From positions 3,200,001 to 3,264,000 of the forward strand of contig OZ244799.1 of NCBI GenBank assembly GCA_965219955.1: a stretch of 64,000 bases of DNA, read 5' to 3'. Within the stretch, counting starts at the first letter, position 1; the number at the start of each line of letters is the position of its first letter. A program made the position numbers and the translations under genes. The notes beneath the pieces were generated by a model. It did no database searches, was not told the DNA's origin, and worked only from the letters and a program-made list of their open reading frames with translations. Shown here in pieces: positions 7,495 through 56,522 of this stretch. This DNA comes from a bacterium (GTDB lineage Bacteria > UBA8248).

Positions 7495-9093
7495 TTAGAG
7501 TCCCCTTTCGATGAGATACTCCACCGGATTGTAGTCGTCCGTCAAAACCGGGCCGTAGAGGCGCGCGCCAGGCGGCGCCACGCGAGCGCGCGCGGCGAAC
7601 GCGAACCTGGTCTCCCGGCGCATCGCCTCGCTCACGCGGCGGAAGCGGTCCGCATCCTCGTCCCGGAACGCGAAGAACAGAATATTCTGCGCAACATAGG
7701 GATTCGCGGGGTCTGTGCTGTAGATGAATATCTCCGGGAACACGCTTTTCATGGTCCGGTAGACGGATGCGTATATCGCGCCGCCGGGACCGGCGCGGTA
7801 GCCGATCAGGTTCAGCATGAAGGCGCCGCCGGGCGCAAGACGCTCTCGCGCCTCTTCGAAAAACTCCTTCGTGACCAGGTGCGGCGGTATGTTCCGCAAG
7901 CCCCGGTAGGCGTCGCCCACGATGAAATCGTATTTTTCGCCGGATGACCGCAGGATGCGCCTGCCGTCTCCCACCAGGGTCTTGATCTTCGGGAACTTCG
8001 CGAGCCTGAAAAACCTGCGTCCCGCATCGACCACTTCCTCGTCGAGTTCGGCCACTTCGATGGATACCTCCGGCTTCATGAGATGCAGCGCCTTGGGCAT
8101 CGTGAAGGCGCCGCCGCCGATGAAGATCGCGCGCTTCATGTGGGGAACGAACAGCGGCCCGAGTTCCAGGAAGCGGGTGTATTCATAGAAAAACTTCCTG
8201 TCGTCTCCCACCACCATCGCCCCTTCGGGCTGGTGATCCAGATACATCTCGCGCACCCGCGCGCCGTCCGCCTCCTCTCTCTCGAATATGCGGATCATGT
8301 GGTACATGTTCTCGCGCACCCACACCGTATCCTTATCCACGCCGGGGATGACGCCCAGCCACGCGGCGCCCGCCCCCATCGAAGCGAGGAGAAACGCCGC
8401 GAGAAGCAGGTTCGCCCGCGCTTTTCGCTTCGAGAACAAACCGGCGAGGTCGCCGCAGAGGTAGAGCCCCAGCGTCGCCGTGAGCGTAAGCGCCGCCGCC
8501 GTCGTCAGGAAGATGCCGTTCAGGCCGAAAAAGGGAATGAAGACGAAGCCCGTCGCGAACGTGCCGAGGATGCTCCCGATGGTGGACCAGGTGAAGAGGT
8601 TGCCCGTCACCGCTCCGAGGCTCCCCTCTCCTCTTGCGGCGAGCTTCACCGCGAAGGGCGTGAGCGTGGCGAGCACGCAACCCGGAGCGGCGAAGAGCAG
8701 AAGACCGGCGATCACGGGTCCCGATTGCAGGCTCAGGCTCTCTTCCATCGTGGGCAGCAGGAGCCCCCGCAGGGCGGGCACAAGGGCGACCAGGCCCGCG
8801 CCGCCCAGCATGAGGGAGAAAAACAGCCTGCTCGACGGGTTCCTGTCCGCGAGCCTTCCCCCTATGGAATAGCCGAGGCTGAGAGCGGCCAGGATGATGC
8901 CGATCATCGAGGTCCAGGTGTAGAGCGTGTTGCCGAAGTGGGGGGCGAGCACGCGCCCCGCCGCGATCTCCATGACGAGAATCGAGCCGCCGGAGAGAAA
9001 GACCGAGAAATAGAGGTACAGGCCCACCACGCTCTTCCCTGTAACCTGCGGTTCTTTGGCCTGCGGCGTTCGCCTGGGCTGCCTGGCCACCAC
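7495..9093 (-). CDS. Fused membrane domain / spermidine synthase-like SAM-dependent transferase
   Basis: N-terminal TM region (MEIAAGRVLAPHFGNTLYTW); C-terminal IGGGAFT, ELDEEVV, GDGR, DAY, LTDDYNP. Start codon uncertain. Confidence 0.88.
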   Translation of the reverse strand: MVARQPRRTPQAKEPQVTGKSVVGLYLYFSVFLSGGSILVMEIAAGRVLAPHFGNTLYTWTSMIGIILAALSLGYSIGGRLADRNPSSRLFFSLMLGGAGLVALVPALRGLLLPTMEESLSLQSGPVIAGLLLFAAPGCVLATLTPFAVKLAARGEGSLGAVTGNLFTWSTIGSILGTFATGFVFIPFFGLNGIFLTTAAALTLTATLGLYLCGDLAGLFSKRKARANLLLAAFLLASMGAGAAWLGVIPGVDKDTVWVRENMYHMIRIFEREEADGARVREMYLDHQPEGAMVVGDDRKFFYEYTRFLELGPLFVPHMKRAIFIGGGAFTMPKALHLMKPEVSIEVAELDEEVVDAGRRFFRLAKFPKIKTLVGDGRRILRSSGEKYDFIVGDAYRGLRNIPPHLVTKEFFEEARERLAPGGAFMLNLIGYRAGPGGAIYASVYRTMKSVFPEIFIYSTDPANPYVAQNILFFAFRDEDADRFRRVSEAMRRETRFAFAARARVAPPGARLYGPVLTDDYNPVEYLIERGL

Positions 9094-47390: not shown

Positions 47391-50300
47391 ATGATCATGA
47401 CTCACCACTGGATGAAACTGGCGGCGCTGGCGGCGCTGCTCGCCGTGACCGCGTCCTGCAAAACGATGGATGAAGGCTCCGCTTCCGGGACGACGCCAGC
47501 CCCGGCCGCCGCTGTTGCCACGCGGGCGAAAAGCCCCGTCCCCGCGGGTTGCGCCGGCTGGAATACGAGCGCCTTCTTCAAAACCGCGACGCCCGAGAGG
47601 GTGAGCGCATGCCTCAAGAAGGGCGCCGACCCCAACGCGCGAGACCAATGGAACGATACTCCATTGCACTACGCAGCCCAGTCGAGCGAGAACCCCGCAG
47701 TCGCCGCCGCCCTGCTGGAAGCCGGGGCCGACCCGAACGCGTGGAACAAATTCGGGGGCACTCCTCTTGACTATGCGGCGTATCACGATAACCCCGCCGT
47801 AGCCGCTTTGCTCAGGAAAGCCGCTGTTGCGCCGCAGGCGGGCAAGCCCAGGCCCGCGCCCAAGAAGGCGACCGCCGCAAAGCGCACCGCGCGCGCCGCC
47901 GAGGCGCCGGCGAAAGAACCAAAAGCCGAAGCGAGCCGCGCACCGGCGGCTGCGACCAAAGAAAAGACCGCCGCCGCGAATTGTGGTGGCTGGAACACAC
48001 CCGCCTTTTGGCAAACCGTGACACCGGAGCACGTTGTGGCTTGTCTCAAAGCCGGCGCAGACCCCAACGCGCGGGACGAAAAAGGCTATACCCCCCTGCA
48101 TGAGGCGGCATGGTCGAACGAAAACTCCGCCGTCATCGCCGCATTGCTCAAGGCGGGCGCCGACCCCAACGCGAAGAACAATCTAGGCAATACCCCTCTG
48201 CGCGCAGCGGCCAACAACAAAAACCCCGCCGTCCTCGCCTTGCTCAAGAAAGCCGCCAGGGAGACGGGCGCACAGGGAAGAAAAGCCGAACCTGCACGCG
48301 AGAAAGCGACCGCCGCGAAGAAGATGGTGAGCAGCGACGCGGCCCCGAGCAGGAAGACGCATAAAGCCGCCGCCGCAAATTGCCCGGGCTGGAACACGCG
48401 AACTTTTTTCCTGGACGCGACGCCCGCGCGCGTGAGCGAATGCCTCAAGGCGGGCGAAAGCCCGAACGCGCGCGACCAGTGGCGCACTACCCCCTTGCAC
48501 TGGGTTGCGCTTTACAGCGAACACCCCGCCGTCGCCGCCGCGCTGATCGAAGCAGGCGCGGACCTCAACGCGCGTGACAAATGGGGCAATACTCCCCTGA
48601 ATAGCGCGCTCAAGAACCGCAACCCCGCCGTCGCCTCTTTGCTCAGGAAAGTCGCCGGGAAGACGGGCGTACAGGCAAGAAAAGCCGAACCTGCGCCCGA
48701 GAAAGCGACCGCCGCGAAGAAGATGGTGAGCAGCGACGCGGCCCCGAGCAGGAAGACACATAAAGCCGCCGCCGCAAGTTGCCCGGGATGGAACACGCCG
48801 GACTTCTTCAAAACCGCAACGCCCGAGGAAGTAAACGAATGCATCAAGGCCGGCGCCGACCCCAAGGCGCGCGACGAATGGGGCAGGACCCCCCTGCACC
48901 GGGCGTCGCTCTACAACAAGAACCCCGCCGTCGTCGCCGCATTGCTTAAAGCCGGGGCGGAGCCGAAAACGCCGAACAAATGGGGCTCTACCCCCCTCCA
49001 TAATGCAGCCCGGAACGAGAATCCCGCCGTCGCCGCCGCGTTGCTGGAAGCCGGAGCCGACCCGAACGCGCGGGACAAATACGGCAAGACCCCTATCCAT
49101 TGGGTCAGATATAACGACAACTCCGCCGTCGTCGCATTGCTCAGGAAGGCCGCCGGGGAGTCCCCGCAAGTGAGCAGGCCCGAGCCTGCGCCCGCGAAGG
49201 CGAGCGCTCCAAAGAGCGTGGCGCGCGCCGACGAGGCTCCGGCGAAAGAAACGAAAGCCGTAGCGAGCCGCGCACCGGCGGCTTCGGGCAAAGAAAAAAA
49301 CGCCGACGTGAATTGCACGGGCTGGAACACGCGCGACTTTTTCACGGACGCGACTCCCGAGCACATGAGCGAATGTCTCAAGGCCGGGGCCGACCCGAAC
49401 GCGCGCGGCGAATGGGGCAGGACCCCCCTACATTGGGCGGCGCTTTACAACAAGAACCCCGCAATCGTCGCCAGCTGCGCGGGCTGGAATACGTTGGCCT
49501 TCTTCCAGGCCGCGACGCCCGCGCGCATGAGCGAATGTCTCAAGGCCGGGGCCGACCCGAACGCGCGCGACGAGTGGGATAGGACCCCCCTGCATTGGGC
49601 GGCGCTTTACAACAAGAACCCCGCCGTCGTCGCCGCATTGCTGAAAGCCGGGGCCAATCCGAACGCGCGGGACAGTTTCGGCAAGACTCCTCTCCAAAGG
49701 GCCGGATTGAACGGCAACCCCGCCGTGGCCGCTTTGCTCAATAAAGCCGCCGGCGAGTCCGCGCAAGTGAGCAAGCCCGAGCCTACGCCCGAGAAAGCGA
49801 CCGCCGCGAAGAAGGTGGTGAGCAGCGACGCGGCAGCGAGCAGAAAGACGCATAAAGCCGTCGCCGCACTGCTCAAAGCGGGCGCAGACCCCAATGCGCG
49901 CGACAAACAGGGCAATACCCCCTTGCACACGGCAGCCCGCTGGAACAAGAATCCCGTTGTCGTCGCCACCCTGGTAAAAGCGGGTGCAGACCCCAATGCG
50001 CGCGATAAGCAGGGCGATACCCCCTTGCACGGTGCAGCCCAATCGAACAAGAACTTCCCCGTCGCCGCCGCCCTGCTCAAAGCGGGCGCAGACCTCAACG
50101 CGCGCAATCAATATGACGCTATTCCCTTACACTACTCAGCCTTGAACAAGAACCCCGCTGTCTTCGCCACACTGCTCAAAGCGGGCGCAGACCTCAACGC
50201 GCGCAATAAACGGGGCTATACCCCCTTGCACACGGCAGCCCGCTGGAACAAGAACCCCGCCGCCGCCACCCTGTTAAAAGCGGGCGCAGACCCCAATGCG

Positions 50301-51857
50301 CGCGACAAGTGGGGCTATACCCCCTTGCACGGTGCAGCCTCGAACAAGAACCCCGCCGCCGTCGCCGCCTTGGCAAAAGCGGGCGCAGACCTCAACGCGC
50401 GCGATAAACGGGGCTATACCCCCTTGCACATAGCAGCCTTGAAAAAGAACTTCGCCGCCGCCGCCGCCCTGCACAAAGTCGGAGCAGACCTCAACGCGCG
50501 CGATAAACGGGGCAATACCCCCTTGCACAGGGCAGCCCGCTGGAACAAGAACCCCGCCGTCGCCGCCGCCCTGGCAAAAGCGGGCGCAGACCTCAACGCG
50601 CGCGACAAAAAAGGCAATACCCCCTTGCACTGGGCAGCCCGCTGGAACAGGAGCCCCGCCGTCCTCGCCGCCCTGTTGAAAGCCGGGGCCGACGTGAGTG
50701 CAAAATCGAAACACGGCATTACCCCCCTACGAACAGCGGCAAATGCCTACAAACCGAATCTCGCCGTCCTCGCCCCCCTGGTAAAGGCCGGCGCGGATCC
50801 GAATGATCGGGACGGGCGCGGGGATACCTTGTTGCACGACGCCTTCCAGGCGGGAAACTCCGCTGTCGCCATCGCCCTGCTCCAGGCCGGGGCGGACCCC
50901 AACATCAAAAACCGCGACGGGGACAGGGCGGAGGACAAGGACAAAAAGGGCATCGCAAAGCGCGCGGACGTCAGGCAGGCCCTGGCCAAGGCGGGTTCAC
51001 TGGGGCGCGCATACGGATCGGAGAAGAAGAAAAGAGAACGGGCGCGCAGAAGGGCCGCACAGCGAGCGCGCTCGTACAGTTCCTCGCCATCCTACTCGTC
51101 CGGCTCCAGCCGCTCCTACTCGTCCAGGCGGCGCTCCTCTTCTAGTTCGGGGGGGCTTTTCCAGGCCACCGGGGGCCAGAGGGCGCTTGAGCGCATACGG
51201 CGGCAGCGCAGGGCGCAGGAGCGCGAGAACGCGAGAATCCGCGCGGAGAACAGACGCAAACAGGCCGAATACAGAAGACGGCAGGCGGAGGCGCGCAGAC
51301 GGGCGGAGGCCAGAAGGCAGCGCGAGGAGACCCGGAGACAGGCGGAATACAGGAAACGGCAAGAAGAAAACAGGCGCCGCCGAGAGGAGGCGAGGCGCGA
51401 ACGGCAGGCGCGCCTGCGCCAGGAAGCCAGGAGACGCGAGGAGATGGCCGCAAGGCGGCGCGCCGAACGCCTGAGACAACAACAAGCCCGAACGCGGACG
51501 ACCTGGAGGCCGAAGCAGGCGCTCAACGCCGACGCCGCGCACTGCCTGAAAAGGAAGCGATTAAAGGGCGGGTTCAACGTAGCCGACAACGAGATAACGA
51601 ACACGTGCAGCTACACGATTGAAGTCGTTGGGGTGTGTCTTGGCGAATACCCTTTCAAGGCGAATTATCCCTTCAAAGGCGCCTACACTTCCCCCGGTGC
51701 TTGGGGGAAGACGCTTCGGCCCAACAGATGGGAGCCCGACCCGAATATGGACATATGCCACAACAGAGGTCGAACCGCTCGACATATCGCTTGCAAAGCC
51801 CCGTTCACTCCACGCTTCCTGTCGGCGAACGGGGGCACTTACGGCTGTTTCGAGTAG
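47391..51857 (+). CDS. Giant ankyrin-repeat lipoprotein with coiled-coil stalk and Cys-rich C-terminal domain
   Basis: Lipobox-like signal (LAALLAVTASC); six C-x-G-W-N-T-capped ankyrin modules; about 10 tandem GADxNARD..G.TPLH repeats; Ser-rich and Arg/Glu/Gln-rich segments; 6-Cys tip. Start may be 47397. Confidence 0.93.
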   Translation: MIMTHHWMKLAALAALLAVTASCKTMDEGSASGTTPAPAAAVATRAKSPVPAGCAGWNTSAFFKTATPERVSACLKKGADPNARDQWNDTPLHYAAQSSENPAVAAALLEAGADPNAWNKFGGTPLDYAAYHDNPAVAALLRKAAVAPQAGKPRPAPKKATAAKRTARAAEAPAKEPKAEASRAPAAATKEKTAAANCGGWNTPAFWQTVTPEHVVACLKAGADPNARDEKGYTPLHEAAWSNENSAVIAALLKAGADPNAKNNLGNTPLRAAANNKNPAVLALLKKAARETGAQGRKAEPAREKATAAKKMVSSDAAPSRKTHKAAAANCPGWNTRTFFLDATPARVSECLKAGESPNARDQWRTTPLHWVALYSEHPAVAAALIEAGADLNARDKWGNTPLNSALKNRNPAVASLLRKVAGKTGVQARKAEPAPEKATAAKKMVSSDAAPSRKTHKAAAASCPGWNTPDFFKTATPEEVNECIKAGADPKARDEWGRTPLHRASLYNKNPAVVAALLKAGAEPKTPNKWGSTPLHNAARNENPAVAAALLEAGADPNARDKYGKTPIHWVRYNDNSAVVALLRKAAGESPQVSRPEPAPAKASAPKSVARADEAPAKETKAVASRAPAASGKEKNADVNCTGWNTRDFFTDATPEHMSECLKAGADPNARGEWGRTPLHWAALYNKNPAIVASCAGWNTLAFFQAATPARMSECLKAGADPNARDEWDRTPLHWAALYNKNPAVVAALLKAGANPNARDSFGKTPLQRAGLNGNPAVAALLNKAAGESAQVSKPEPTPEKATAAKKVVSSDAAASRKTHKAVAALLKAGADPNARDKQGNTPLHTAARWNKNPVVVATLVKAGADPNARDKQGDTPLHGAAQSNKNFPVAAALLKAGADLNARNQYDAIPLHYSALNKNPAVFATLLKAGADLNARNKRGYTPLHTAARWNKNPAAATLLKAGADPNARDKWGYTPLHGAASNKNPAAVAALAKAGADLNARDKRGYTPLHIAALKKNFAAAAALHKVGADLNARDKRGNTPLHRAARWNKNPAVAAALAKAGADLNARDKKGNTPLHWAARWNRSPAVLAALLKAGADVSAKSKHGITPLRTAANAYKPNLAVLAPLVKAGADPNDRDGRGDTLLHDAFQAGNSAVAIALLQAGADPNIKNRDGDRAEDKDKKGIAKRADVRQALAKAGSLGRAYGSEKKKRERARRRAAQRARSYSSSPSYSSGSSRSYSSRRRSSSSSGGLFQATGGQRALERIRRQRRAQERENARIRAENRRKQAEYRRRQAEARRRAEARRQREETRRQAEYRKRQEENRRRREEARRERQARLRQEARRREEMAARRRAERLRQQQARTRTTWRPKQALNADAAHCLKRKRLKGGFNVADNEITNTCSYTIEVVGVCLGEYPFKANYPFKGAYTSPGAWGKTLRPNRWEPDPNMDICHNRGRTARHIACKAPFTPRFLSANGGTYGCFE

Positions 51858-52401: not shown

Positions 52402-52619
52402 TCGGGGCGGTAAATGCGCCGCCCGCGCCTCGGCGGGACCGGTACAGGTTTTTCGCGCACGATTCCACCTCGCCCAGACAGCGGACCGGACAGGCGCAGG
52501 GGCCTACCCAAAGACTGCGTTTTCGCAGGGGAGAACCTGCGCATTTGCCCGCATTTGCCGTCATAGCGTTATTTCGGACATCACAAAATTCGCCATAAGG
52601 ATATCGGCAACGTTCTTCG

Positions 52620-52648
52620 TTGCGTTTGCGAAATAAAAACTACATAAT
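52620..52648 (+). promoter_or_regulatory. Putative sigma70 promoter of the three-gene operon
   Basis: TTGCGT (52620-52625), 17 bp, CATAAT (52643-52648) in an AT-rich stretch upstream of ATG 52690. Confidence 0.5.
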
Positions 52649-52689
52649 CCACTACCGTCTAAATTTCTATCACAGGAAGGCCGCATTGT

Positions 52690-53376
52690 ATGAATCAGAC
52701 GCAACCTCCTGATTCTCATGGGGGAAATGAAACCAAACTGATCGAGTTATCCGTCGTGCTGGTGGCGAATTCCAATAATCCATCTATCATCAATCCCGAC
52801 TTCCTGCGCTACAACAAAATCGTGGACGACAGCTATGAGGTTCAAGACTCACCCATTTCCACGCCTGCATTTTCCCAGGTGATATTCAAAAATGGGATTA
52901 CAATAGTGTCGGATCCTGCTCGTGTCATAATTGGACAGTCTGGAACTTTAGACAGAAAGAATGTCGTGTCTCCTGAAGTCGCGAAGCGCTATTTAGAATG
53001 TGTTCCCCACGTACCTTACCGCGCCATCGGCATTAACCCGAAAGGTATTGTGTCTGGGCAAGAACCAAATCCTGTTGTCAATATGGTTCGCGACAATGGC
53101 TTATGGATGTCATTCAAGGACGTGATTCCTGAGGGCCAGCTAAAAGCCATATATCGCTACACAGAGAGAACTATTTTCCTTGATATCGGCGGTGCGGACG
53201 TAGCGGAAAACGATCAAACAACATCTGGAACACTGTTTCAGGCGAATATTCATCGTGAGTTGACGGAGACGGATGCGGAGTCTCGCATCACGCGTTTATG
53301 GTCGATTCTGGATTCTTGGGGTAGCGATCTGGAGGACTTTTACAATTTAACGAGCAAGTTCTGTGGGGAGGGATGA
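52690..53376 (+). CDS. Hypothetical protein (TIGR04255-like), gene 1 of coupled trio
   Basis: SVVLV...NPSIINPDFL, AIGIN and ANIH patterns recall the TIGR04255-like family; lower GC; overlaps the next gene by 4 bp. Confidence 0.6.
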   Translation: MNQTQPPDSHGGNETKLIELSVVLVANSNNPSIINPDFLRYNKIVDDSYEVQDSPISTPAFSQVIFKNGITIVSDPARVIIGQSGTLDRKNVVSPEVAKRYLECVPHVPYRAIGINPKGIVSGQEPNPVVNMVRDNGLWMSFKDVIPEGQLKAIYRYTERTIFLDIGGADVAENDQTTSGTLFQANIHRELTETDAESRITRLWSILDSWGSDLEDFYNLTSKFCGEG

Positions 53377-54071
53377 TGTCCATTGCAACAGGTCCGGAAC
53401 CAATACCGGATTCAGAGACGGCAGCCGACATTGAGCAACTGGTAGCCGATTTTGAGCATCGGGGTTCACATCTGAATCTGGGCGCGAGGTCGGTTCACAG
53501 GATACATGTAGTCGGCAGGACCAGTTTCAGTTCTTCGAGTTGGTTTCCAGCGGTTCGAAAAACACTTTTTGAGGATGCTCCACAACCTGAATCACAACCC
53601 GGCAATATCTTGTCCTGTATATTGCCGTTTCTTCATCCGGGGCAATCGAAGCTCAAGCCACGGGATTGGGTTTTGCTTGGAGAGTTCGCCACACATGGCG
53701 CAGAGCACTTCCCCATACAACTTGCCGACGCCTTGCGCGATCTCGATGAAGTCGTCGAGGAAGCTGAAGAAGAAGGGTTTCCCGTACCGAAAGAGGTTGT
53801 TCTCGAAGATGCGAAACGGTTGTTGAGGGAAATGTACGCCATATCGCCACGCCGCTTCGAGGTTTATCCCATGCCGGACGGCGAAGTCGCCATCGACGCG
53901 CCAGATGGAAAAGGAAGTTCCGTGCTGCTCTTGTGCGATTCGGAAGGCGGCGCGTTGTGCCTGGTCAACATGAAAGGCAAACATCGACGCGCCCGGTATT
54001 CCACCACCGAAACGCTTCCTGACGGATTCATTCGTGAAGCCATCGCAGAACTTGAACGACAGAACGATTGA
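53373..54071 (+). CDS. Hypothetical protein (putative antitoxin/immunity), gene 2 of trio
   Basis: Loosely structured N-terminal half; acidic C-terminal domain (LRDLDE...GFPVP...AKRLL...VYPMPDGEVAI); 4-bp overlaps on both sides. Confidence 0.6.
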   Translation: MMSIATGPEPIPDSETAADIEQLVADFEHRGSHLNLGARSVHRIHVVGRTSFSSSSWFPAVRKTLFEDAPQPESQPGNILSCILPFLHPGQSKLKPRDWVLLGEFATHGAEHFPIQLADALRDLDEVVEEAEEEGFPVPKEVVLEDAKRLLREMYAISPRRFEVYPMPDGEVAIDAPDGKGSSVLLLCDSEGGALCLVNMKGKHRRARYSTTETLPDGFIREAIAELERQND

Positions 54072-54505
54072 ACCCTGAGAAACCACCCGAGAACATCGGG
54101 CAGGACGAGGAACTCGGGCGCGGCGTATTCTCAAGACGCAGAGCGAGACGTGCACAACGCTCAAGAGTCCCAGCGGATGTATTTTTAGAAAAAGAAGGCG
54201 AACCCAAGATTTCCGTTGACAGGCTGAGCTTGGCGCCGATGGATAAGGCCGTCGAGATTGCCGAGGATGTAGCCTCGAATCGTCCTAACGCTACCTTCTG
54301 CGGTTGGGCTTTCCTCACCGCCTCAAGCGCACGGGAAAATGAACGAGAAGCCGTTGCTTCACCGAAAGAAAATAACCCATATCACGCCGATATCGTATTG
54401 CCCCAAGCAGCGGTCGAAGATCGAGAAGAACAAAAACGGCACGCGCTGGAACTGGCTGATGCTTCAAGCTGGCGAGAACGCCCGAACCCTTCCCAGAACA
54501 CTTGA
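54068..54505 (+). CDS. Hypothetical protein, possible ADP-ribosyltransferase-fold toxin, gene 3 of trio
   Basis: 145 aa with EELGRGVF ... VF ... ISVDR ... NPYHADI; TTGA overlap with gene 2. Confidence 0.55.
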   Translation: MNPEKPPENIGQDEELGRGVFSRRRARRAQRSRVPADVFLEKEGEPKISVDRLSLAPMDKAVEIAEDVASNRPNATFCGWAFLTASSARENEREAVASPKENNPYHADIVLPQAAVEDREEQKRHALELADASSWRERPNPSQNT

Positions 54506-54534: not shown

Positions 54535-55632
54535 TCAGCTACCAGCCTTCGTCCATTCGAGACGCTTCTTCAACCTGTTCAGAGGATGCCCCCAGGGCAG
54601 ACGGCGTTCGTGTTGAAGCCTGCCGATTACGATGCCCGGGGCGATGCCCTGCTCCTCCGCGAACCGCCGAACAGTCGAGACATTTTGGGGCTTTTCCTCG
54701 ACAAACTGCTCCCAAACCTCACTCGGGATCAGGAAATCCGCAGCCCAGCGGTTCGCTTCGGCTTCGTGTCCTTCCGCGCCGTTTTCTTTCGAGTCAATGA
54801 AAACGTCTTTCTTGCTGTGCAGCAGGATGTGCGCGGCTTGGTGGAACAAGGTGAACCAGAGATGATCGTCCGTCTTGTGGCGCGCGCTCAGGGCGATCAC
54901 CGCCTTTTGGCTCGAAAGCCACCATGCGGCGCCGCTGATGGCGGCCTTCGGCAAGGGTGGTATCAAGGCCAGGACGACGCCCGATTCATTGCAACGCTCG
55001 CCCGCCCTGCGAATCGCTTCGCCGAACGGTTCGCGCGTGAGCGTACGGATTTCCCTTAGGGATTGCTTGAAGCGAGCCGCGTTGAACTCGGCGCAAGTTT
55101 GCCGTTCGGCTTCAAGCTCACTCAGTCTGCGCCAGGTCGCCAGAGCGCATTCGTCGCTCTCGAAGCTCGGCGAATGCCGGTAGTTGACACTCGCCCATCC
55201 ATATTTGACGGCCCAGGCTTCGACCGAGCCGACGCCGAAAAAGGCGAGCAGTCCCGACACGCTATCGGCGCTCGAGGACGGCTTATCCATCACCCCGCGC
55301 TTGACAAGAGCGTTTACGGGAAAGCGCTTTGCCCACGAAATGGATTTTGCCGCTTGTTTGGCTTCGGCTTCCTGCGCCCGGTGGAGCTTGTAGTCGGACT
55401 CCAGCCCAAGCCAGATATGAGCGGCCACTCCCGTTACCTTCTCGAATTGAAGGGCCGTCTCCGGTTCCACGGGAGCCTTTCCCGCGACGATTTCGCTGAT
55501 GAGTTTGGGTGAACGGCCGCACCGGCGGGCGAAATCCGCATACGACATGTCATGCGCCTCCAGGCGTTCCGCAAGTATCGTTCCGGGCGCAACTGCGTAG
55601 TCCGGCTGGTACGCATTGGCTGGTCCGATCAT
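54535..55632 (-). CDS. higA: HigA-family antitoxin (HTH XRE) fused to ImmA/IrrE-type peptidase domain
   Basis: YAVAPGTILAERLE, HTH, TALQFEKV, WLGLESDY; WFTLFHQAAHILLH, EAEANRWAADFLIP. Confidence 0.9.
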   Translation of the reverse strand: MIGPANAYQPDYAVAPGTILAERLEAHDMSYADFARRCGRSPKLISEIVAGKAPVEPETALQFEKVTGVAAHIWLGLESDYKLHRAQEAEAKQAAKSISWAKRFPVNALVKRGVMDKPSSSADSVSGLLAFFGVGSVEAWAVKYGWASVNYRHSPSFESDECALATWRRLSELEAERQTCAEFNAARFKQSLREIRTLTREPFGEAIRRAGERCNESGVVLALIPPLPKAAISGAAWWLSSQKAVIALSARHKTDDHLWFTLFHQAAHILLHSKKDVFIDSKENGAEGHEAEANRWAADFLIPSEVWEQFVEEKPQNVSTVRRFAEEQGIAPGIVIGRLQHERRLPWGHPLNRLKKRLEWTKAGS

Positions 55633-55645
55633 GATTTGAACCTCC

Positions 55646-55981
55646 TCAATGGTAGTCGACCACCTCGATGATGATCATCGAAGTGACCTGGCTCAGGTCG
55701 ATACCGCCGTCATCCTTTTCGGGAACCGGATCGTGGTTCGGCTTGAAGACGAGCCTTCGGGGATGAACGAGATCGACGGCGTATTGCCCTTCGCGCTTTG
55801 CTTTCAGGGGATGACACCGCTCCGGCGGCGTCGACGGCACGTCCGCCAACGTCCGGGCGTTGCTTAAAACCGCCAGACGCGACTTGAGCCTCTCCGCCAT
55901 GCGTCCGCCATACGCCTTTTGAAGTTCGTTCTCTGAGTTGAGTGTCTTCTCAAGTTTTCTGGTTCGGAAAGCGATGTCCAC
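55646..55981 (-). CDS. higB: HigB/RelE-family toxin
   Basis: DIAFRTRKLEK, PPERCHPLK..REGQYAVDL.HP.RLVF.P, IIIEVVDYH; lies upstream of higA; GTG start at 55981. Confidence 0.9.
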   Translation of the reverse strand: MDIAFRTRKLEKTLNSENELQKAYGGRMAERLKSRLAVLSNARTLADVPSTPPERCHPLKAKREGQYAVDLVHPRRLVFKPNHDPVPEKDDGGIDLSQVTSMIIIEVVDYH

Positions 55982-56151
55982 TTCGCCAACTTTCGGGCGG
56001 CAACCAGGGAACGAGTTTATTTTGTTACCTATCAGGTAATGATATAGATAAACATATGGGCCGTCAAGTATGGGTGCACAGGAAGGCCGGGTCGCGACCT
56101 GTCCCTGCCACTTCGACGCCTCCTTCCTCCCCGTTCGGGCTTGCCGCGCAT

Positions 56152-56460
56152 ATCCGCGCATTTGCCGTCACGGGATTTTCGCGGCGGTGGGGCATGCCCG
56201 GAAGGCCGCCGGTCGGCCCCCGGTTTTTCAGGCGGCGGAGCGGGCGCGGATCGCGGGTGCCGGGTGGACGCTCCGGCGAAATGAGGAACATGCAAAATGC
56301 AAAAAATAATATCCGAAAAATTAGATAAAATTAGATAAATTCACGGGGTTTTTCGATAAATAAGTGTAAATTATTTTTTCGGGAAAGACGCCGCCGCAAC
56401 CAGGCGCAGGGGGATTCTGCCATGGCCTGCGATACATGCGGTGACGGCAAATGCGCGGAT
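56152..56460. repeat. Perfect 20-bp inverted repeat enclosing an AT-rich segment
   Basis: ATCCGCGCATTTGCCGTCAC (56152-56171) and GTGACGGCAAATGCGCGGAT (56441-56460); a third partial copy CGCATTTGCCGTCA lies at 52550-52563. Confidence 0.85.
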
Positions 56461-56522
56461 TTGCAGGGAGTTGCGCCCCGCTCAGGTTGTCCGCCCGGCG
56501 CGCGCGTACCTCATCGCGCGCC

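Follow-up and report, generated by a model that had tools for sequence, protein, structure and literature searches.

What kind of system is encoded by three overlapping genes of low GC content at positions 52690 to 54505 of the 64-kb stretch analysed here (the window, on contig OZ244799.1 of a UBA8248 bacterium), and what part does each product play? We refer to these open reading frames (ORFs) as g1, g2 and g3, and to the C-terminal domain of g2 as g2C. The answer towards which we lean, with moderate confidence, is that g2C and g3 form a type II toxin-antitoxin-like module of two undescribed families, to which g1 is added as a helper in the three-gene form seen in the window. A first-pass annotation of the window had likewise seen here a candidate undescribed system of the toxin-antitoxin kind, in which g3 would be the toxin and g2 the antitoxin, a proposal that gains from a model of the complex, from a fusion of g2C to the antitoxin DarG and from a replacement of g2 by HigA. 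The parts are as follows.

52690-53376, + strand: g1, 228 aa; accessory protein found at a minority of related loci, with a predicted duplicated alpha/beta fold.
53373-54071, + strand: g2, 232 aa; an N-terminal extension followed by g2C.
53373..53717, + strand: N-terminal extension of g2 (residues 1-115); poorly conserved, variable in length and present whenever g1 is present.
53718..54071, + strand: g2C (residues 116-232); acidic candidate antitoxin domain with predicted binding to g3.
54068-54505, + strand: g3, 145 aa; candidate toxin, with a six-strand alpha/beta model and a basic helix, RRRARRAQRSR.

The layout described in the first-pass annotation, three + strand genes of lower GC content chained by 4-bp overlaps and converging on a higBA-type pair, is borne out by the ORFs, their GC content and the family matches of the neighbours. 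The stop/start overlaps are ATGA and TTGA, 4 bp each, and the junctions read GGGATGATG and GATTGAACC. GC content is 0.470 in g1, 0.532 in g2 and 0.546 in g3, compared with 0.648 and 0.657 in the flanking genes and 0.632 over the window.

All three are conserved genes of undescribed families. None has a meaningful match in Pfam, NCBIfam, PADLOC or PHROGs at E ≤ 1, and none of 91 further g3 homologues reached the Pfam cut-off (11 gave chance-level matches, E 0.012-0.087). Profiles of g1 and g3 (two profiles in the case of g3) matched no PDB sequence, and the g2 profile found chance-level matches only. Atlas look-alikes of g3 and g1 were unnamed clusters only, and the DNA of the trio found no match in the plasmid collection. 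Among the papers that turned up on KptA, toxin-antitoxin systems, CmdTAC and chaperone addiction, none describes the family, which for a nameless family that may go by other names is weak evidence that it is unpublished. The families are nonetheless sizeable: homologues of g3 form 135 clusters at 90% identity, and at 50% identity there are 933 representatives (E ≤ 0.001), 515 of them at 1e-10 or better, and g2 has 540 homologues (90%-identity clusters) at E ≤ 0.001, many of which consist of g2C alone (128-137 aa).

Which of the three genes belong together as a unit? One genome per species was scanned for g3, giving 119 relatives, from which 80 loci (numbered with L below) were kept. By tblastn, g2C (about residues 116-232) adjoins g3 in 79 of the 80 loci and g1 is present in fewer than half. 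ORFs of 80 aa or more were also counted with hidden Markov models (HMMs) in 79 loci and the window (L038, in which g3 is truncated, dropped out): of 82 g3 ORFs, 81 have g2 as the immediately preceding ORF. A full g1 is present in 33 of the 79 loci that have a g2 ORF. Since g2C stands beside nearly every g3 and g1 does so in fewer than half of the loci, the core of the system is g2C plus g3; the tripartite unit of the first-pass annotation recurs in those 33 loci, but not as an obligate trio. At many loci the g2 protein measures only 119-150 aa, the size of g2C alone. ORF clustering revealed no further recurrent gene within 3.5 kb on either side, the leftover clusters being antisense shadows and lineage-specific synteny. 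The pair can also be multiplied, as in L080 (5567-8483), where three g2-g3 pairs stand in tandem with the genes overlapping within each, and in L040 (5546-6875), where the order is g2-g3-g2, a second g2 following g3. Across phyla, identities run from 45 to 80% for g2C and from 42 to 83% for g3.

Small adjacent genes in the same orientation whose products bind each other are the mark of type II toxin-antitoxin modules, and g2C-g3 has this form, the binding being a prediction. The model of g3 with g2 residues 105-232 reached an ipSAE of 0.91 in three of three runs, with 0.04 for the best of three controls; of 157 solved complexes 116 attained this level, and so did 2 of 215 mismatched pairs. The partner had a pLDDT of 90, and the runs agreed in at least 98% of their contacts; no similar complex was found in the PDB by sequence. 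The model supports binding of g2C to g3. On the g3 side the predicted interface comprises residues 22-43, which include the basic helix, and 119-132, a conserved REEQ..HA..LA helix; on the g2C side it comprises an acidic helix around 126-134 (DEVVEEAEEEG) and the sheet at 161-208. The acidic C-terminal domain that the first-pass annotation saw in g2 is real (residues 111-232 have a pI of 4.57 and a net charge of -12), and it is general, with a median pI of 4.73 over 78 loci. That the antitoxin's acidic helix covers the basic helix of g3 in the model hints at a nucleic-acid substrate.

Genomic context suggests which partner is which. At L066 (3874-6414), a DarT gene (NF048013, 237 bits) is followed by a gene fusing DarG to g2C and then by g3. 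The fusion protein, of 483 aa, has a complete DarG (NF048014, 446 bits, residues 2-338; macrodomain against 5m3i, 3.2e-53; C-terminal domain against 7yk3_B, 6.9e-21) with g2C at about residues 365-483. Because g2C has been added at the C-terminus of a complete DarG, it travels here as an addition to a known antitoxin. L075 and L079 carry broken or split versions of the same fused gene, from L066's own lineage. DarTG is a pair of a single-stranded DNA ADP-ribosyltransferase (ART) toxin and a macrodomain antitoxin, and the macrodomain fused to g2C was entertained as a sign of ART chemistry in g3; we rejected this, because the macrodomain is that of a complete DarG in a DarTG operon and so supports "antitoxin", not "ART". 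L066 can be described as two toxin-antitoxin systems linked through a fused double antitoxin.

A second context comes from L046 (5989-6764), the sole locus with g3 and no g2. There the end of g3 is also the start of a gene for a HigA-family helix-turn-helix (HTH) antitoxin (TIGR02607, 63.1 bits where the cut-off is 47.7), in the position that such an antitoxin takes after a HigB-type toxin. Another HigA-like N-terminus is found 0.7 kb beyond, on a protein of 1358 aa. From these contexts, g3 is likely the toxin and g2C the antitoxin. Elsewhere g2C is joined to TPR repeats (L029) or to a HepT fragment (P0160, P0172), and P0128 has two g2C domains in tandem; longer fused forms of g2 amounted to only two clusters in the search.

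What, then, does g1 add? Its presence goes with the length of g2. All 33 loci with g1 have at least 87 g2 residues before g2C (median 109), and 31 of the 46 loci without it have fewer than 60 (median 19.5), g2 starts being taken from the longest ORF. An extension of at least 60 aa is thus found in 33 of 33 loci with g1 and 15 of 46 without (Fisher 8e-11, not corrected for phylogeny). On the g2C + g3 tree (77 rows; L038, L046, L057 and L075 omitted as too short or unpaired) the g1 state changes at least 15 times, and among eight independent pairs on starred branches g1 and the extension change in the same direction in six to seven and in opposite directions in none (sign test p 0.016-0.031). 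L002, which has the module at the chromosomal site that it occupies in the window, carries a short pair only: homology to the window starts at 53721, in the first codons of g2C, and therefore g1 and the extension are missing together. In alignments the extension itself is almost unconserved; a Trp-containing motif suggested by the MAFFT alignment was dropped, because one Trp per ~100 residues is expected by chance. These patterns support an evolutionary tie between g1 and the g2 extension, apparently following the logic of toxin-antitoxin-chaperone (TAC) systems.

The helper itself is of an unexpected kind. The AlphaFold 2 (AF2) model of g1 (pLDDT 88.4) has two similar strand-and-helix halves, and Foldseek against the PDB returned AdoMetDC (E 3.8e-5, TMq 0.37), TBP chains (E from 3e-4, TMt up to 0.44) and McsB, with high probabilities and low TM-scores; its predicted fold is a duplicated TBP/AdoMetDC-like one. 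No SecB was among the Foldseek matches listed and g1 has no Pfam match at E ≤ 1, in keeping with the first-pass suggestion of a non-SecB third protein, which the tie to the antitoxin extension also favours. A likeness of g1 to TIGR04255, suggested in the same annotation, had to be given up, as neither g1 nor its relatives have an NCBIfam match: g1 showed no TIGR04255 match at E ≤ 1, and at E ≤ 10 there was none in 30 proteins (28 of the g1 family and two unrelated upstream ORFs) or in eight cyanobacterial relatives, although HMMER filters may hide very weak matches. No paper on TIGR04255 was found in the literature searched.

Homologues of g1 at the related loci are 39-56% identical, and D37, R78, N116, Y155, N186, H188, R189 and D213 are its invariant polar residues. 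More distant relatives (25-37% identity) occur on 23 cyanobacterial plasmids. On the Picosynechococcus plasmid NZ_CP016487.1 (L081, 2992-4742), a g1 homologue (hhalign 99.96%) heads an unannotated operon of 226-, 197- and 146-aa proteins, which separates the hsdR and hsdS genes of a type I restriction system and adjoins a HepT/nucleotidyltransferase pair. The 197- and 146-aa proteins were tried as relatives of g2 and g3 and rejected (hhalign probability 0.5%), the 146-aa protein having an HMM score of 4.4 and E 4.9 among about 2,500 ORFs. By eye the motif order of this trio is alike and the N-terminal part of its middle protein is of low complexity, which we take as a lead only. In Anabaena, Gloeothece, Calothrix, Oscillatoria and Acaryochloris (L083-L087) the g1 relatives adjoin giant CARDB/Ig-domain genes of 19-33 kb; the Calothrix relative is duplicated. 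On the strength of this distribution g1 appears to be a modular helper whose use extends beyond the present toxin-antitoxin pair.

A possible objection is that g1 serves a separate purpose, as a sensor of a small molecule or peptide, an enzyme or a TBP-like DNA-binding regulator of the operon, and co-varies with the extension through adjacency, in one gain or loss event. Its invariant polar residues would suit a ligand or active site, its fold matches TBP and AdoMetDC, its relatives lie beside giant surface-protein genes on cyanobacterial plasmids, and the g2 extension is without a conserved motif. DNA binding, however, is argued against by the acidity of g1 (pI 4.77), and the objection in general by the fact that a short g2 stands beside g1 in 0 of 33 loci, by the frequency of 4-bp overlaps between g1 and g2, and by the Picosynechococcus operon, where a g1 homologue again heads a trio whose middle protein has a low-complexity N-terminal part. 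We regard a separate job for g1 as rather unlikely, though worth keeping in mind.

The nature of g3 bears on a further objection. Its AF2 model (pLDDT 92.4, pTM 0.85) has six strands, mostly each followed by a helix. The Arg, Phe, Ser and His singled out in the first-pass annotation turn out to be among the most conserved residues of g3: over 125 diverse homologues S49 and H106 do not vary, and conservation is at least 90% at R18 and F39, as it is at G17, D51, R52, G79, W80, P99, N103 and I109. In the model strand 1 (residues 15-20) carries R18, strand 2 (47-52) carries S49 and strand 5 opens with H106, the places taken by R, S and E in the R-S-E (cholera-toxin-like) clade of ARTs; the six-strand model is broadly compatible with the general ART core (six strands, split sheet). 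Both comparisons follow an excerpt of PMC8120803. An Arg on strand 1 and a Ser on strand 2 are thus present, the local motif being S-V-D, not S-T-S. Foldseek against the PDB placed KptA/Tpt1 first (9ld4_C, E 0.12, probability 0.90, TMq 0.45, below significance), followed by further Tpt1 entries at E about 1 and the mono-ART domain of SdeA (E 1.2, TMq 0.36); against BFVD the matches were to a protein without a name (E 0.015, TMq 0.46) and, at E 0.85, to an RNA 2'-phosphotransferase of a baculovirus. The ART fold of the first-pass annotation thus keeps the strand positions of R18, S49 and H106 in its favour, but the Foldseek matches are sub-threshold and the catalytic Glu is missing, which leaves it weakly supported. 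A divergent ART/Tpt1-like, NAD-using fold is our leading guess for g3, possible if on balance doubtful; g3 is a demonstrable member of no ART clade.

Could g2C and g3 instead make up a heterodimer that is stable and non-toxic, such as a Tpt1-like enzyme modifying RNA or nucleotides together with its regulatory subunit, with g1 as a further regulator and the whole as a mobile accessory function that serves neither addiction nor defence? The partners and their predicted interface are unusually conserved for a toxin-antitoxin pair (45-80 and 42-83% identity, as given above), the best fold match of g3 is the non-toxic enzyme KptA/Tpt1, and PADLOC does not recognise the trio. However, the fusion of g2C to DarG in a DarTG operon, the replacement of g2 by HigA in L046, the tandem arrays, the patchy spread across phyla and the unrelated neighbours are all typical of toxin-antitoxin systems; we judge this explanation unlikely. 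That the polarity is reversed, g2 being toxic or an effector and g3 neutralising it, is very improbable, as nothing specific speaks for it (g2C too has many invariant polar residues) and g2C is acidic, is fused to the antitoxin DarG and is encoded in the antitoxin-first order, while g3 stands with a HigA antitoxin when g2 is missing.

How does the trio compare with described systems? The closest in design are the TAC systems, e.g. HigBA1-SecB(TA) of Mycobacterium tuberculosis, the features of which we take from excerpts of PMC5105189 and PMC6377645; in the former, the antitoxin carries an extension that is tied to the helper and missing from chaperone-independent relatives. Shared with these are the three-gene operon, an extra, poorly structured antitoxin extension that two-gene relatives lack, and a third protein found only together with that extension. 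The parts differ, however. The predicted fold of g1 is TBP/AdoMetDC-like and it has no SecB match, so a SecB-like third component is wanting; the extension of g2 is N-terminal, where TAC antitoxins have a C-terminal chaperone-addiction domain (ChAD); the gene order in the window is helper-antitoxin-toxin; the g3 and g2C families are unrelated to HigBA, MqsRA or HicAB; and binding of g1 to the g2 extension is in our case something that we infer. By its parts the trio is not a TAC member.

CmdTAC (PD-T4-9) combines an mRNA ADP-ribosyltransferase toxin with an antitoxin and a SecB-like chaperone. With this system, in which, according to an excerpt of PMC11618068, the helper senses a capsid protein and an ART toxin is released, the trio shares the tripartite layout, a candidate ART-like effector and the proposed trigger, loss of the helper destabilising the antitoxin. 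It differs in that g3 has only 145 aa and lacks the catalytic Glu, and in that the trio proteins have no PADLOC match. DarTG resembles g2C-g3 as a two-gene toxin-antitoxin module, and g2C-g3 is attached to a DarTG operon in L066, L075 and L079; but no relationship of g3 to DarT is detectable, g2C is no macrodomain, and the fusion is confined to one Dehalococcoidia lineage. Tpt1/KptA is an RNA 2'-phosphotransferase and a divergent ART, with an H-H-h motif and an R-H-R-R catalytic set. It is the best PDB structural match of the g3 model, and both are small with a conserved Arg and His; the match, however, has an E of 0.12 or worse with no sequence similarity, and g3 has one domain in place of two lobes and conserves R-S-(D,R)-N-H.

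Taken as a toxin-antitoxin-like module with a helper, the locus might work as follows. The toxin, g3, would be neutralised by direct binding of g2C, the acidic helix and beta-sheet of which would cover the basic helix and the long C-terminal helix of g3, as in the model. It would most likely be an enzyme acting on nucleic acid by means of R18, S49/D51/R52 and N103/H106. In the form seen in the window, the antitoxin would have gained an N-terminal extension of ~115 residues, with g1 encoded just upstream; g1 would bind this extension and thereby control the stability or folding of the antitoxin. The logic of g1 and the extension would be that of a SecB chaperone and the ChAD tail, realised with an unrelated TBP-like protein and a tail at the opposite end. 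Loss or titration of g1, for example by a phage product, would then free g3. What the analysis shows is the conservation of the genes, their linkage, the joint variation of g1 and the extension, a predicted g2C-g3 complex and the fusions and swaps of an antitoxin kind; toxicity, the chemistry of g3, binding between g1 and the extension and any role in phage defence are what we infer.

Several observations weigh against this reading. First, g1 and the extension lie next to each other on the DNA, and one deletion or recombination could produce the same co-variation with no interaction between the products; the alignments reveal no convincing shared motif in the extension, and 15 loci without g1 have a longer g2, some of these carrying DarG or TPR domains. 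Second, most g1 relatives on cyanobacterial plasmids lie beside CARDB/Ig genes, not toxin-antitoxin pairs, and therefore g1 is not a dedicated toxin-antitoxin partner. Third, no PADLOC model, PD-T4-9 (CmdTAC) being among those included, is matched by g1, g2 or g3, and the g3 protein has no homologue in the phage and plasmid collections. Fourth, as to an ART chemistry, strand 5 of g3 has no catalytic Glu in a [QE]-x-E motif (it reads H106-A-D108, with D108 less than 90% conserved), the fold matches are all under significance (best E 0.12 in the PDB and 0.015 in BFVD), and g3 was rejected as a relative of DarT (hhalign probability 0.3%). Fifth, the putative catalytic residues lie outside the predicted interface, so that occlusion of g3 catalysis by the antitoxin is not supported, and the overall pI of g3 is 5.35, which is not basic.

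A bolder version would make g3 the founder of a large and so far unrecognised family of minimal (~140 aa) ART-fold toxins in which an R-S-H/N centre replaces the Glu and which modify nucleic acids, with an acidic antitoxin that would repeatedly have come to depend on a TBP-fold protein by way of a disordered tail at its N-terminus, a convergent, SecB-free "chaperone addiction" serving as an infection sensor that spreads among a symbiont community. This is a speculation to which we give little credence.

The distribution of the pair suggests movement. The g2C-g3 pair occurs in 10 phyla, and the tree requires 20 changes of phylum label where the minimum is 9; starred branches join different phyla, as with a Binatia row inside the Alphaproteobacteria (98*). 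Neighbours vary, housekeeping genes among them, and those upstream at loci without g1 include peptidase S9, sulfatase and solute-binding proteins, SNF2/NOV_C helicases and a Schlafen AlbA_2 protein. In L004 (1967-5554) and L057 (1884-5414), from Latescibacterota and gammaproteobacterial genomes, a ~1,180-aa SNF2/DEAD helicase + NOV_C protein is encoded directly 5' of a short g2-g3 pair, with a gap of 0 in L004; it may be a defence-type neighbour. We take the pair to be mobile, given its patchy occurrence over phyla, varied neighbours and tandem array and the locally low GC content in the window.

Nearer home, the window, L001 and L002 have the module at one chromosomal site, with nucleotide identities of about 74-85% and a right flank in common that begins at window position 56146 or 56527; L001 has the trio and L002 the short g2-g3 pair alone. 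In the window a GCGCATTTGCCGTCA-like motif occurs at 52539-52563, 56146-56170 and, inverted, 56442-56464 (4 matches in the 64 kb, where 0.28 are expected), and thus only at the two edges of the low-GC island and inverted ~270 bp beyond. The same layout is found in L001 (4467-4481, 7936-7960 and, inverted, 8224-8238), and the blocks of homology between the window and L001 start exactly at both direct copies. The cargo that accompanies the trio between the copies differs: a HigBA-like pair in the window and an M23 peptidase gene in L001. The motif may be a recombination or regulatory site.

The remaining features of the locus are these.

52539..52563, + strand: left copy of the GCGCATTTGCCGTCA-like repeat (15-25 nt), at the left edge of the low-GC island.
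52620-52648, + strand: weak promoter-like element, TTGCGT-17-CATAAT, a pattern match in the AT-rich leader.
54535-55632, - strand: gene for an HTH and M78 peptidase protein (HigA TIGR02607, 50.6 bits; Peptidase_M78, 9.9e-11; PADLOC PD-Lambda-2_B, 3.2e-40).
55646-56161, - strand: HigB-like gene (phrog_3066, 4.5e-11; Pfam HigB-like, 0.0083, under cut-off).

The 126-bp leader (52564-52689) is AT-rich, with a GC content of 0.405, and a Shine-Dalgarno-like AGGAAGG lies ~10 nt 5' of the g1 start. The trio had also been credited with an AT-rich promoter of its own; of this the composition stands but not the promoter, as a consensus scan found none on the + strand of the leader, and the best candidate, TTGCGT-17-CATAAT, agrees at 8 of 12 positions and falls under the threshold of the scan.

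The trio converges on the - strand pair with 29 bp from stop to stop. This pair (54535-56161) resembles components A (HigB-like) and B (HTH + M78 peptidase) of PD-lambda-2, which, in an excerpt of PMC9519451, consists of a HigB-like A, an HTH-peptidase B and a P4-antitoxin-like C, with B toxic and A rescuing from it. There is no space for a component C 3' of B, because the end of g3 is only 29 bp from the B stop. The pair is missing from the corresponding site in L001 and L002. No tRNA or Rfam elements were found in the window. To the left, an ankyrin-repeat protein of 1488 aa with an Arg/Glu-rich tail is encoded at 47391-51857 on the + strand (Pfam Ank, 3e-132); this gene and non-coding DNA up to 52538 take up ~5.3 kb, compared with 128 bp in L001, and therefore an insertion occurred here or a deletion there. 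To the right, between inverted copies of the border motif, 56290-56390 is a very AT-rich stretch of repeated AAATTAGATAAA units, which sits 5' of small - strand ORFs without assigned function.

If the reading of g2C-g3 as a toxin-antitoxin module with g1 as helper is true, two sizeable families (933 representatives at 50% identity for g3, 540 clusters at 90% for g2C) would join the toxin-antitoxin repertoire, and the helper-addicted antitoxin design would have had a second origin, based on a helper of unrelated fold. Helper addiction would then be a general evolutionary solution, not a peculiarity of SecB. The matched two-gene and three-gene forms at one chromosomal site (L002 versus the window and L001) provide a natural experiment on the role of the helper, and g3, a compact protein, is a candidate source of new chemistry that is NAD-dependent or modifies nucleic acids.

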